Below are positions 619-59,450 of a stretch of 64,000 nucleotides of DNA, piece after piece. A program made the translations under genes and the position numbers. The stretch is from Eledone cirrhosa. Taxonomy: Eukaryota. The notes under the pieces were generated by a model, which did not search any database, was not told the origin of the DNA, and worked only from the letters and a program-made list of their open reading frames with translations. Position 1 is the stretch's first letter. Every line of letters starts with the position of its first letter. The stretch covers positions 50,344,001-50,408,000 of the forward strand of contig OZ024747.1 in the NCBI GenBank assembly GCA_964016885.1, given 5' to 3'.

Positions 619-818
619 AACGAAGGAATTGTGGCAAGGAGCCAGATGGACTATAACGCACCAGAGTACTCAATACTTAGGGTAGTAGAGTGGGAAATAG
701 GAAAAAGTATGACCACGACGGCAGAGCTCAAGCCGTTTCGACGGCTATTTCTGGACTAAAACAGAAATAGCCGTCGAAACGGCTTGAGCTCTGTCGTCGG
801 GGTCATACTTTTTCCTAT
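619..818. mobile_element. Family A fold-back element (3' half of HHR), head-to-head palindrome
   Basis: Arms ccgtttcgacggctatttctg and cagaaatagccgtcgaaacgg. Sense arm reads GAAA-CGGC-ttgagctct-GTCG-TC. Both ends abut (TA)n. Confidence 0.8.
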
Positions 819-1069
819 ATATATATATATATATATATATATACAAATATATATATGTGTCTGTGTGTGTATTTGTGTGTGTGTGTATGTGTGTGTGTGT
901 GTGTGTGTGTGTGTGTGTGTGTGTGTGTGTGTGTGTGTGTGTGTGTGTGCGCGTGTGTGTGTGTGTGTGCGCGTGTGTGTGTGTGTGTGTGTGTGTAAGT
1001 GTGTGTGTGTGGCATGGGCTATGTCTGTCTTAGTTTTGTTCTTAGTCACTATATTGTAAGGTTGTAACT

Positions 1070-1460
1070 ATTCTATTCAAGATTTCTATTTAAATTTGGT
1101 CGAAGTTCATTTATGTTTATAGCCCCAGTTATCCGCTGGCGTATTGCGTCTATGTAGATATAATTTTTATGTTGATGTTCTCTAGTGTGGCCTCATGTCC
1201 TGACATGTTGGTGGAGTATTGATGAGTTTTTCTTGTCTTGGAGTTCCCGCCAGTGTTCTTTCACCCTTTCTCCTAAGTTATGGGCAGTCTCCCCTATGTA
1301 TGTCATGTGCCTACACTGTCACTCTGTACATCTTATGCTACAAACTAGGTTCCTACTTGCACAGTTGGTCTGTGGATTTAATCTGTAGACTATTCATTTT
1401 CTATCGGTGCAGGGGATTTTCGTCAAATGTTGACAATAGAAGACACAAAAGAACAAAACT
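1070..1460 (-). pseudogene. PLE GIY-YIG endonuclease fragment (family B)
   Basis: Minus-strand translation NCASRNLVCSIRCTE*QCRHMTYIGETAHNLGERVKEHWRE...NELRPNLN matches the PLE GIY-YIG pattern (NLVY..C..C..YIGET...R..EH...P.LN). Contains stops. Confidence 0.8.
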
Positions 1461-1639
1461 AATAAGATAAATGGACAGCGCTCTCCCCACAACCACACAC
1501 ACACACGCACACATACACGCGCGCGCACACACACACACACACACACACACACACGCACGCACGCACACACACACACACACACACACACACATACACACAC
1601 ACATACACACACATACATATATATATATAAAGAGAGAGA

Positions 1640-1990
1640 TTACAAAAACCTGGAAAACAATTAATTTACTAGTGACAAGTAGATAGGAAAGAGGGAAGGG
1701 AGAGAAAATAAAGAAATAACACACTGATGTAAAGCATGCACAGTCCAGACGGTGGAAACAGAACAAAGAGGAGACACAAAGCAACAAAAGCAGTCACTGC
1801 AGAGGTCCCAGAATGTGTGACGAAAGAGCTCCGACAATCAACAACTAAACATCCATTAGGTTATTAAACTAACCGATGAGAAATTATAATAATAAATTGA
1901 AGTGAAACTTATCTGGTATGTGTTTTTTTTATTGGCAGCACGACCCTCCAGAAGAATGACAATTTCTTTTGATTTTGGATAGCTGCACGA
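1640..1990 (+). mobile_element. Family B PLE 3' terminal repeat with HHR, inverted relative to the GIY-YIG fragment
   Basis: CTGCAGA-G-GTCCCA-gaatg-TGTGAC-GAAA-GAGCTC at about 1797-1831. Homologous to 28320-28820 and 53570-53930. Confidence 0.7.
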
Positions 1991-1999
1991 AAGATGAAG

Positions 2000-3300
2000 A
2001 GAGAGTGAGAGGGTGATAACGATTGAGTATGAGATAGTAAGTGAGAGGGAGAGAGAGAGAGAGAGAGAGAGTGAGAGGGTGATAACGATTGAGCGTGAGA
2101 TAGTAAGTGAGAGGGAGAGAGAGATAGTGAGAGGGTGATAACGATTGAGCGTGAGATAGTAAGTGAGAGGGAGAGAGAGAGAGAGTGAGAGGGTGATAAC
2201 GATTCAGTATGAGATAGTAAGTGAGAGGGCGAGAGAGAGAGTGAGAGAGTGATAACGATTGAGCGTGAGATAGTAAGTGAGAGGGAGAGAGAGAGATAGT
2301 GAGAGGGTGATAACGATTGAGCGTGAGATAGTAAGTGAGAGGGAGAGAGAGAGAGAGTGAGAGGGTGATAACGATTGAGCGTGAGATAGTAAGTGAGAGG
2401 GAGAGAGAGATAGAGAGAGAGAGAGTGATAACGATTGAGTATGAGATAGTAAGTGAGAGGGCGAGAGAGAGAGAGAGAGAGTGAGAGGGTGATAACGATT
2501 GAGCGTGAGATAGTAAGTGAGAGGGAGAGAGAGAGAGAGTGAGAGAGTGATAACGATTGAGCATGAGATAGTAAGTGAGGGGAGAGAGAGAGAGAGAGAG
2601 AGTGATAACGATTGAGCGTGAGATAGTAAGTGAGGGGGCGAGAGAGAGAGAGTGAGAGGGTGATAACGATTGAGTATGAGATAGTAAGTGAGGGAGCGAG
2701 AGAGAGTGAGAGTGAGAGGGTGATAACGATTGAGCGTGAGATAGTAAGTGAGGGGGCGAGAGTGAGAGTGAGAGGGTGATAACGATTGAGCGTGAGATAG
2801 TAAGTGAGAGGGAGAGAGAGAGAGAGTGAGAGAGTGATAACGATTGAGCATGAGATAGTAAGTGAGGGGAGAGAGAGAGAGAGAGAGTGATAACGATTGA
2901 GCGTGAGATAGTAAGTGAGGGGGCGAGAGAGAGAGAGTGAGAGGGTGATAACGATTGAGTATGAGATAGTAAGTGAGGGAGCGAGAGAGAGTGAGAGTGA
3001 GAGGGTGATAACGATTGAGCGTGAGATAGTAAGTGAGGGGGCGAGAGAGAGAGTGAGAGGGTGATAACGATTGATCATGAGATAGTAAGTGAGAGGGAGA
3101 GAGAGAGAGAGAGAGTGAGAGGGTGATAACGATTGAGCATGAGATAGTAAGTGAGAGGGAGAGAGAGAGTGAGAGGGTGATAACGATTGAGTATGAGATA
3201 GTAAGTGAGGGGGCGAGAGAGAGAGTGAGAGGGTGATAACGATTGAGCATGAGATAGTAAGTGAGAGGGAGAGAGAGAGAGAGAGAAAGAGAGAAAGAGA
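2000..3300. repeat. Minisatellite, about 55-60 bp unit with variable (GA)n
   Basis: About 22 copies of gtgataacgattgagcgtgagatagtaagtgag followed by (ga)n. Confidence 0.95.
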
Positions 3301-57939: not shown

Positions 57940-57978
57940 AACCAACATGTTTCTGGGTCATTACCCTTCATCAGGATT
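57940..57978 (-). ncRNA. Minimal type I hammerhead ribozyme motif
   Basis: Minus strand reads AATC-CTGATGA-A-GGGT-aatg-ACCC-A-GAAA-CATG-TT-GGTT, with palindromic stem III ACATGT. Confidence 0.75.
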
Positions 57979-58094
57979 GTATACCTATGCCAATCTGTTG
58001 AACGATTGAAAATATATAGTATTTCCTTAAGTACACATCGTCTGAGTAGCCTCATTTGCATACCGAGCGAGTTATATAATATAGATATGGCTTC

Positions 58095-58136
58095 TACAGG
58101 ACTAGTACCGTTTCATTCGAAAGAAATCATCAGGCT
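58095..58136 (-). ncRNA. Family F HHR motif
   Basis: Minus strand reads CTGATGA-T-TTC-tttc-GAA-T-GAAA-CGGTACTAG-TC, followed on + by an inverted partial core cctgatgatttc. Confidence 0.6.
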
Positions 58137-58420
58137 TTTCCTGATGATTTCCTCCGATTGAACCCGGGATACACCCCCCCCATATATATATATATATATA
58201 TATATATATATATATATATATATATATATATATATATATAGTAATAATAATAAATTTGAAGACTAAAATCGAAAGAGGGCTCGATAAGTATAAATATATA
58301 TCAATCAAATATATAAGAACCGTAGAGAAAATATTTATATATATACATATATATATATATATATATATATATATATATATATATATATATATATATATAT
58401 ATATATATACATATATATAT

Positions 58421-59038
58421 ATATGAGAGACGTAAAATAAGAAAATTATAAAATTAACTTACTTACTAAAAAATCACTTCCAACTAATTAGTTTCTGGAA
58501 TGAAGTAAATATATTTTCCGAAGAAACATATAGAAAATCATTCCGTCATCAGGAAAGTCTTTTTCCGTGTAAGTCTCCAGGCATAGCGAGGACTCTGGAA
58601 ACTTATTAAAAAAATAATTCAGTGGAAAGGAAATAGCGAAGCGTGGACTGGATTCCATGTAGAGGCAGCGATTTTCTCAATGGCTCGGAATCCAGCCCAC
58701 GCTTCGCTATTTCCTTTCCACTGAATTATTTTTTTAATAAGTTTCCAGAGTCCTCGCTATGCCTGGAGACTTACACGGAAAAAGACTTTCCTGATGACGG
58801 AATGATTTTCTATATGTTTCTTCGGAAAATATATTTACTCCATTCCAGAAACTAATTAGTTGGAAGTGATTTTTTAGTAAGTAAGTTAATTTTATAATTT
58901 TCTTATTTTACGTCTCTCATATTATTGTTCTGCAACCCCATGCATTGAACCACAATGTTAATAAGACAAAACCTATATATTTGCTAGCATTGATATGCAT
59001 CTGTGTGTATATAAATGTTACTAGATATAAATTCCTTA
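58421..59038. mobile_element. Family J: ~500 bp palindrome with two complete HHRs (58476-58558 minus, 58785-58867 plus)
   Basis: Arms of about 236 bp with a 30 nt spacer. Plus strand reads ACTTTC-CTGATGA-C-GGAATG...CATTCC-A-GAAA-CTAATTAG-TT-GGAAGT. The tail runs to (TA)n at about 59038. Confidence 0.9.
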
Positions 59039-59325
59039 TATATATATATATATATATATATATATATAAATATATATATGTATATATATACAATTTGCAT
59101 ATTCATCTTCTGAATTAATTATCAACACTAGCGCTAATTTTTTGCAAATTAATACGTCCATTTCAGATTACTACTATTAAAGGTGTTTTCTTTTTCAATT
59201 TACAGGGAAATTCTTATTTTCTGGCACGTTAATAGGTCAACATATTAGATTTATACACGTTGGTTTTTATACAGATACAACTTTAACACGCACACACATG
59301 TATATTCATATATATATATATATAT

Positions 59326-59450
59326 GAAAAAGTATGACCCCGACGGCAGAGTTCAAGCCGTTTCGACGGCTATTCCCACTCTACTACCCTAAGTATTGAG
59401 TACTCTGGTGCGTTATGGTCCTTCTTGTTCCTTACCATAATTCCTTTGCT
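59326..59450. mobile_element. Family A element, inverted with deletion
   Basis: Same layout as 5364-5507. Confidence 0.75.

Follow-up and report, generated by a model that had tools for sequence, protein, structure and literature searches.

Terminal-repeat copies of a Hydra-type Penelope-like element in Eledone cirrhosa share a genome-wide 5' wall within stem II of a predicted hammerhead ribozyme

The 64,000-nucleotide stretch of Eledone cirrhosa DNA analyzed here (contig OZ024747.1, positions 50,344,001 to 50,408,000; hereafter the window), from a 3.0-Gb genome rich in microsatellites, carries 10 copies of family A, the terminal repeat (pseudo-long-terminal repeat, pLTR, with a tail) of a Hydra-type Penelope-like element (PLE) 3.1 kb in length. 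Copies of family A break off at a hotspot 41 nt before the predicted cut site of a hammerhead ribozyme motif, and this hotspot holds genome-wide and is not a matter of chance. Judging from sequence, we moderately favor the reading that the copies are 5'-truncated PLE ends that stop at -41 because the element mRNA starts there, and that the paired arms would have formed when two internally primed cDNAs were joined head to head. The feature is real and of a known class, but its cause differs from that of the original prediction, which held that nascent cDNA snaps back on a long stem II hairpin and primes itself or, alternatively, that a split ribozyme receives its catalytic strand in trans.

All 10 family A copies listed in the original prediction are present in the window; they are 89–98% identical to the copy at 57180, each is embedded in (AT)n, and the canonical hammerhead core CTGANGA is absent from all 10. 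Element copy L061 serves as the coordinate reference, its predicted cut site lying between GUC at -3..-1 and position +1; the GUC site and stem III had been placed correctly, and the assignment to a hammerhead-bearing retroelement was also right. On this scale window arms begin between -33 and -44, which is 10–21 nt ahead of GAAA in all 14 arms that reach stem III, confirming that 5' ends cluster shortly before GAAA. The four copies described as palindromic at the breakpoint are so (619, 9917, 13603 and 53940), two further inversions with barely overlapping arms (5364 and 59326) had not been separated, and the remaining four are single arms.

Because random 10-kb stretches of the genome contain too few copies for mapping (13 matches in 37), we used position-ordered pattern matches on contig C1 instead. 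Among loci L151–L240, taken in order from the first 100 of 3,905 matches, 69 of 92 short-ended arms end in -50..-30, so that breakpoints are non-uniform genome-wide as had been anticipated, and 83 of the 92 have an inverted partner. Arms stopping at the cut site are rare (2 of 92), consistent with the uncleaved RNA template described for the Poseidon PLE of Anolis (PMC11167929). A larger set of 278 arms covering -30..-1 (window, L064–L240 and L271–L330, shorter arms excluded and 30 loci picked for reaching -35) gave a per-base chance of ending of ~0.1 at -35..-39, 0.24 at -40 and 0.55 at -41, where 54 of the 98 arms still at risk end; few arms end at the base of stem II (-24..-34), and 14 of the 278 pass -46. 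Exact genome counts fall from 21,875 arms reaching -35 to 9,644 reaching -41 and 1,520 reaching -50, with the caveat that longer patterns lose copies to mutation too. Among genome arms that extend to -35, 27 of the first 30 end within about -35..-45, whereas arms that extend beyond -50 mostly continue for at least 100 nt more. Subfamily 2 behaves alike, with 18 of 18 truncated arms, read by eye, ending at -41..-45. Apparent ends at -48 and -286 derived from BLAST were rejected as alignment artefacts.

The nature of the parent was evident from upstream DNA. Upstream continuation was found in 5 of the 30 best genome matches (L008, L009, L018, L029 and L030), where the upstream DNA encodes pieces of reverse transcriptase (RT) and endonuclease. 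In L061 a pair of 303-nt direct repeats, offset by the unit length of 3,096 nt, flanks a broken open reading frame (ORF), so the parent layout is pLTR, RT-endonuclease ORF, pLTR, with all copies seen being broken. L062 and L063 are inverted, and the partial-tandem pLTR, inverted 5'-truncated copy and optional tail of endonuclease-positive PLEs are all present. In both of these long insertions (L062 near 5315 and L063 near 3322) an arm starts at ~-935, at a short inverted repeat within the endonuclease region. The ORF pieces contain RT motifs, including YRDD, and a VIY..YIG endonuclease, in keeping with the single ORF of RT plus C-terminal GIY-YIG of endonuclease-positive PLEs. Relatives of the RT piece numbered 149, mostly of 430–950 amino acids, of which one has an RVT_1 match that falls short of the curated threshold and another bears the name GIY-YIG; the endonuclease piece is 39% identical to P0064, and Pfam and PDB searches with the ORF pieces returned no significant match. 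The Hydra clade of C-terminal-endonuclease PLEs was defined in PMC8557442, and its motifs recur here: DKT, the linker CNCPDRSTC (CxCX5C), CNLC (CxxC), CKH (CxH) and RWR for RWK (one change), together with (TA)n targets and no cysteine pair between VIY and YIG (no CCHH). The match to that definition points to the Hydra clade, an assignment made here from motifs.

The parent holds a whole predicted type I hammerhead motif whose core is TTGANAA (UUGANAA in RNA), a U3-A8 variant. In L061 the core lies at -86..-80, the stem II 5' strands at -79..-68 and -59..-53, the loop at -52..-45, the stem II 3' strands at -44..-38 and -34..-24, and GAAA at -23..-20. Core positions 3–9 with the 3:8 pair, GAAA, the UH site and three stems are all present, the motif being predicted from sequence. 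The hammerhead fold uses standard pairs throughout and has an energy of -29.4 kcal/mol against a minimum free energy of -33.5 kcal/mol (~4 kcal/mol above the minimum; z -2.98). We gathered 43 intact motifs from the collected loci with a pattern that permitted C or T at position 3 and A or G at position 8; 43 of 43 read TTGANA, the 3:8 pair being invariant, while position 7 varies (C 30, A 10, T 2, G 1). Stem II in alignment A1, inspected by eye, shows one compensated and one broken pair. Rfam gave no hammerhead match on the intact motif, nor among the 150 of 448 window matches listed, and no genomic trace of self-cleavage was seen, with 2 of 92 arms starting at +1 and 2 genome matches in which the cut end is joined to -41. 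A C3U/G8A core pair has been described for Schistosoma PLEs (PMC4209133).

Several claims of the original prediction turn on this core. A longer master copy with a long stem II does exist, as proposed, but its core is TTGANAA and not CTGANGA, which is why the latter was missed; the lack of this motif in window copies, although correctly noted, is not an effect of truncation alone. The 5' half of the ribozyme is indeed lacking from every window copy but not from every copy genome-wide, given the 43 intact motifs and the exact arms reaching -50. A split ribozyme supplied in trans is therefore not needed. The absence of CTGANGA from the 10 window copies is the one sequence feature in its favor, and an mRNA starting at -41 would have at its 5' end the 3' half, for which pairing with the pLTR copy at the 3' end is conceivable; set against the 5' half lying in cis in the parent, the compensated core and the lack of a pile-up of copies at the cut site, we regard this explanation as barely credible.

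What sets the wall is suggested by the sequence around it. Position -41 falls on the A of an initiator-like YAGTC motif, within TTAGTC or, for some copies of subfamily 2, TCAGTC; upstream of this A lie a TATA-like box at 31 nt (29 nt in subfamily 2) and CCAAT at 92 nt. An extra G precedes 29 of 54 arms ending at -41 compared with 34 of 159 at control positions (p = 2e-5, in a subfamily-1-rich set), the parent base there being T, and in L004, L295 and L153 the G is found on both arms with a 1-nt spacer. In L1 and SVA an extra 5' G is taken as a copied cap (PMC2912911). From these sequence features we consider -41 a likely RNA polymerase II (Pol II) start site inside stem II.

A number of observations weigh against a start at -41. 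The extra G was not replicated in subfamily 2 (2 of 18, with T 9, C 6 and A 1); the first 100 non-T matches listed for subfamily 1 comprise G 52, C 42 and A 6; T at -42 is common in subfamily 1; and 14 of the 29 extra Gs can also be read as the base of the partner arm. The subfamily 1 TATA-like box has two mismatches, as have 24 of 691 nearby positions. The walls of families A and F coincide with ribozyme features (in A the top of the distal stem II 3' strand, in F the first base of stem I), many joints suit a 3–6-nt fold-back loop equally well, and a jump onto the ribozyme-cut 3' end, which we sought, was found in 0 loci and 2 genome matches. Finally, Penelope of D. virilis starts upstream of its hammerhead (PMC2377424, PMC4209133), so a start inside the ribozyme would not be general.

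Other repeat families of this genome bear on the same question. Long copies of family F contain CCAAT and, in 10 of 10, a TATA box ~27–34 nt before the wall, which lies ~30 nt downstream of that box, just before the CTGATGA core. With its wall beside a TATA box at the expected spacing and outside stem II, family F provides an independent test that supports the start-site reading. The base before its wall (C 85, G 10 and T 5 of 100 matches, A not included) is a weak test for an extra G. The original prediction had family B at 53790 and family F at 45525 also breaking at the stem II 3' strand; this is true at 53790 but is no rule, since the core region is retained in 16 of 17 B arms, all but 53790, and all 21 truncated F arms in a set selected on the core end at most 7 nt before it, some other F arms being shorter. 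The walls of families B, H, I and K lie upstream of the core, that of B ~60–75 nt before it (~10 truncated arms). Around the B wall, long copies (L185, L194, L218, L367 and L369) carry a motif cluster that we take to be ETS, NRF1 and YY1 sites, resembling a TATA-less promoter, and long H copies (L202, L220, L232 and L355) carry, upstream of the truncated-copy starts, an octamer-like motif followed by what is presumably the proximal element of small nuclear RNA genes. Genome-wide, the family F pattern is strand-skewed (6,798 versus 3,839), and a large tandem array is possible.

Walls are therefore family-specific and adjoin promoter-like motifs, and the contact with ribozyme boundaries in A and F sustains a structural alternative, in which transcripts would begin farther upstream and be cut near -41, or halt RT there, through the ribozyme fold or through a protein or nuclease located at the top of stem II. 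The position of the A wall at the top of the distal 3' strand (-44..-38), that of the F wall at the first base of stem I, the two long insertions broken near -935 at a local inverted repeat and the missing G signal in subfamily 2 would all suit such a block. A hairpin block would be expected to act at the stem base (-24..-34), however, where stops are rare; the walls of B, H, I and K lie outside the ribozyme, the family F TATA box is clean and at the right spacing, and neither a stall nor a cut should yield an extra G. We therefore rate a structural wall as unlikely.

The 3' ends of the arms inform how pairs arise. Two 3' ends abut (AT)n, +20 and +98, in a ratio of 190:188 across loci (some sets had been selected for one of the two ends). 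In 90 of 94 palindromes an arm that ends at +20 faces one that ends at +98. Comparison of the reach of arms in long-plus-short pairs split 43 versus 31, with 16 equal (p = 0.2), so that neither arm type leads. In 12 of 83 partnered cases the start of the long arm lies downstream of the cut site; here the short arm is no copy of it and must have been primed separately. At the joints of 96 pairs (two duplicates), which differ widely between insertions, 49 have inserts, 25 have overlap and 22 are blunt. Non-consensus alleles common to both arms number 99 in the 96 pairs versus 14 ± 6 after shuffling, and such shared subfamily alleles imply a single origin for both arms, be it one RNA, cDNA or source locus. 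Head-to-head joints in the -41 region also occur in short-read contigs of public runs; an assembly artefact was ruled out by this recurrence and by arms differing at ~3 of 51 bases. In one window arm, 10051–10183, subfamily 2 alleles give way to those of subfamily 1 close to the cut site, implying that two templates or a later conversion were involved.

Snap-back on the stem II hairpin, as originally put, finds no support in these pairs. It needs cDNA of the 5' strand (-79..-53), yet most copies stop before that strand and so cannot fold back on it; moreover, the second arm copies the 3' strand and not the parent's 5' strand, nearly all pairs have one +20 and one +98 end, and the walls of other families lie outside stem II. 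A relaxed form of the same idea, and of the self-priming in PMC3846280, fares better: one cDNA at the RNA end would fold back via a 3–6-nt mini-loop, not stem II, and then anneal to the other primed end, which is compatible with a start-site wall. Recurrent joints at -41/-35, -41/-37 and -41/-39 would leave loops of 6, 4 and 3 nt, and 38 of 94 palindrome centres have 3–8 unpaired nt; the alleles common to both arms and the subfamily change in the arm at 10051 also fit. On the other side, 32 of 94 centres have 0–2 unpaired bases, the 16 pairs of equal reach and the lack of a leading arm type are not as such a fold-back would have them, nor are the both-arm G with a 1-nt spacer and the zero-spacer joints, and non-overlapping pairs require two primings. 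We favor the joining of two cDNAs for the head-to-head pairs and keep the mini-loop fold-back as a real rival, doubtful though it is.

Under a start at -41 with two internal primings, the cycle would run as follows. The pLTR would act as a Pol II promoter giving mRNA from -41, in which the 5' ribozyme copy is incomplete and unable to cut. The element protein would nick both strands of an (AT)n target and prime at +20 and +98, either on a single RNA or on sister RNAs, both cDNAs would extend to or near the RNA end, with C sometimes added opposite the cap, and the cDNAs would then be joined through an end-to-end jump or short microhomology. Rare long copies, with the promoter restored, could be products either of a jump to the 3' pLTR guided by homology or of RNA reading through tandem loci. 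Such a step is called for because mRNA from -41 has +98 only near its 5' end, yet 32 of 78 long arms end at +98 and extend upstream past -100; with the cut-end jump nearly absent, any jump would be homology-guided and silent. A more specific version, which we hold only tentatively, likens the short insertions to retroviral strong-stop intermediates: the stem II promoter would start the mRNA mid-ribozyme and disarm the 5' copy, a dimeric enzyme would prime both target strands at two fixed positions near the cap, and a failed jump to the 3' pLTR would leave short head-to-head insertions by the tens of thousands whereas a successful one would rebuild the pLTR with its promoter. If true, this scheme would account together for the tail, for the inverted copy and for the regeneration of pLTRs, on a sense, capped template. 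Alternatively, the short units may themselves be transcribed and multiply as non-autonomous elements resembling short interspersed elements or retrozymes. The 21,875 and 18,307 exact arms against few long copies would fit, but joints vary widely between insertions, the short units are without the upstream CCAAT and TATA-like boxes, and they do not form tandem arrays with whole ribozymes, making this quite improbable.

Family A arms and other features of the window are collected in Table 1. With 10 insertions over its 64 kb, the window is richer in family A than the genome sampled at even intervals, where 37 stretches of 10 kb gave 13 matches. The inverted arm at 13606–13640 has a rare 3' end, exactly at -1 (1 such end counted). 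Further families with canonical CTGANGA cores, several head to head in (AT)n, are likely PLE terminal pieces. Diverged pieces of the family A element or of a relative lie at 43249–43546 and 42419–42456 (minus-strand ORF end plus 3' untranslated region; pLTR piece at 43502). Near-perfect palindromes at 56918–57012 and ~29690–29900 are unrelated to family A, and a 65-bp tandem array occupies 18597–19509 (14 copies, 94% matches).

Table 1. Family A arms and other repeat features in the window; spans are relative to the predicted cut site
Feature	Window position	Strand	Span and remarks
Family A long arm	619..757	-	~-44..+98 (stem II 3' strand, GAAA, stem III, GUC, stem I 3' strand, tail)
Short partner arm	762..818	+	-37..+20, head to head with 619 arm
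Short arm	5362..5422	-	-41..+20
Long arm	5422..5507	+	from ~+13, scarcely overlaps partner (twin-priming geometry)
Long arm	9917..10051	-	-37..+98, subfamily 2
Second long arm	10051..10183	+	-35..+98; subfamily 2 alleles by centre, subfamily 1 alleles past cut site
Inverted arm	13606..13640	-	-35..-1, 3' end at predicted cut site
Long arm	13640..13774	+	-37..+98
Single long arm	27729..27867	+	start exactly -41, subfamily 2
Single short arm	42211..42269	-	-39..+20
Single long arm	45653..45785	+	-35..+98
Long arm	53940..54077	-	~-40..+98
Short partner arm	54079..54132	+	-35..+20
Single long arm	57180..57319	+	from -41, extra G ahead (parent base there T)
Short arm	59322..59374	-	-33..+20
Long arm	59373..59446	+	from ~+17..+21, no overlap with partner
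Family B head-to-head insertion	53627..53927		broken at stem II 3' strand near 53790, atypical of B
Family F head-to-head insertion	45487..45637		broken near 45525-45535; usual F wall just before CTGATGA core
CTGANGA-core repeats	281, 23651, 47575, 49411, 49753, 58791		
CTGANGA-core repeats	28530, 30030, 31202, 49381, 55175, 57974, 58133, 58552, 27992	-	

Prior work covers the class of element and its core variant, as well as the tail, the inverted copies and the palindromic joints. A literature search, with supplements and subscription papers outside it, found no report for PLEs of a fixed 5' wall, strong-stop products or a start inside the hammerhead. In common with the Hydra clade (PMC8557442), the element is ~3 kb long, with a single RT plus C-terminal GIY-YIG ORF, DKT, a CxCX5C linker, CxxC, CxH, (TA)n targets, a hammerhead in the pLTR, an adjacent inverted 5'-truncated copy and an optional tail; it differs in having RWR and not RWK, a tail of 78 nt versus 30–40, and a U3-A8 core with a long stem II. 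The fixed 5' wall seen here does not appear in the accessible part of that account. Schistosoma Cercyon PLEs (PMC4209133) share the U3-A8 core covariation and have opposite-strand motif pairs 100–700 bp apart, whereas family A has a full 5-bp stem III with a palindromic loop, a stem II of ~17 bp and a majority of copies without the core. A non-LTR retrozyme, with tandem units each carrying a whole type I hammerhead (10.64898/2026.07.22.740005), was considered and rejected, as the copies here lie scattered, alone or in head-to-head pairs, and for the most part have no core.

The closest mechanistic parallel is the Poseidon PLE of Anolis carolinensis studied in vitro (PMC11167929), in which two internal RT start sites define the tail, targets are AT-rich, both strands are nicked and extended, and the RNA template is uncleaved; Poseidon belongs to another clade, and the accessible text on it has no word on in vivo cDNA ends, head-to-head joints or a start inside the ribozyme. 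LINE-1 twin priming (PMC2912911) is similar in that two target ends prime on one RNA, cDNAs are joined by microhomology and an additional 5' G is interpreted as a copy of the cap, but its second site is variable and its arms are without overlap, whereas both family A sites are fixed and near the RNA 5' end. Penelope of Adineta vaga (PMC3846280) likewise shows head-to-head palindromes at the inverted joint, with TATA and initiator-like motifs in a pLTR; these palindromes were explained by self-priming on an antisense template, whereas our data point to a sense template primed twice. Head-to-head inversion and pLTR regeneration in PLEs are stated open questions (PMC2377424, PMC3846280, PMC8557442), the latter having no obvious mechanism (PMC2377424). 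A start inside the ribozyme, if true, would be a simple means of sparing the mRNA from cleavage by its 5' copy. With more than 20,000 arms ending at one base, family A constitutes a natural record of how PLE inverted insertions form, and that record argues for a sense template primed twice and against self-priming on antisense RNA.

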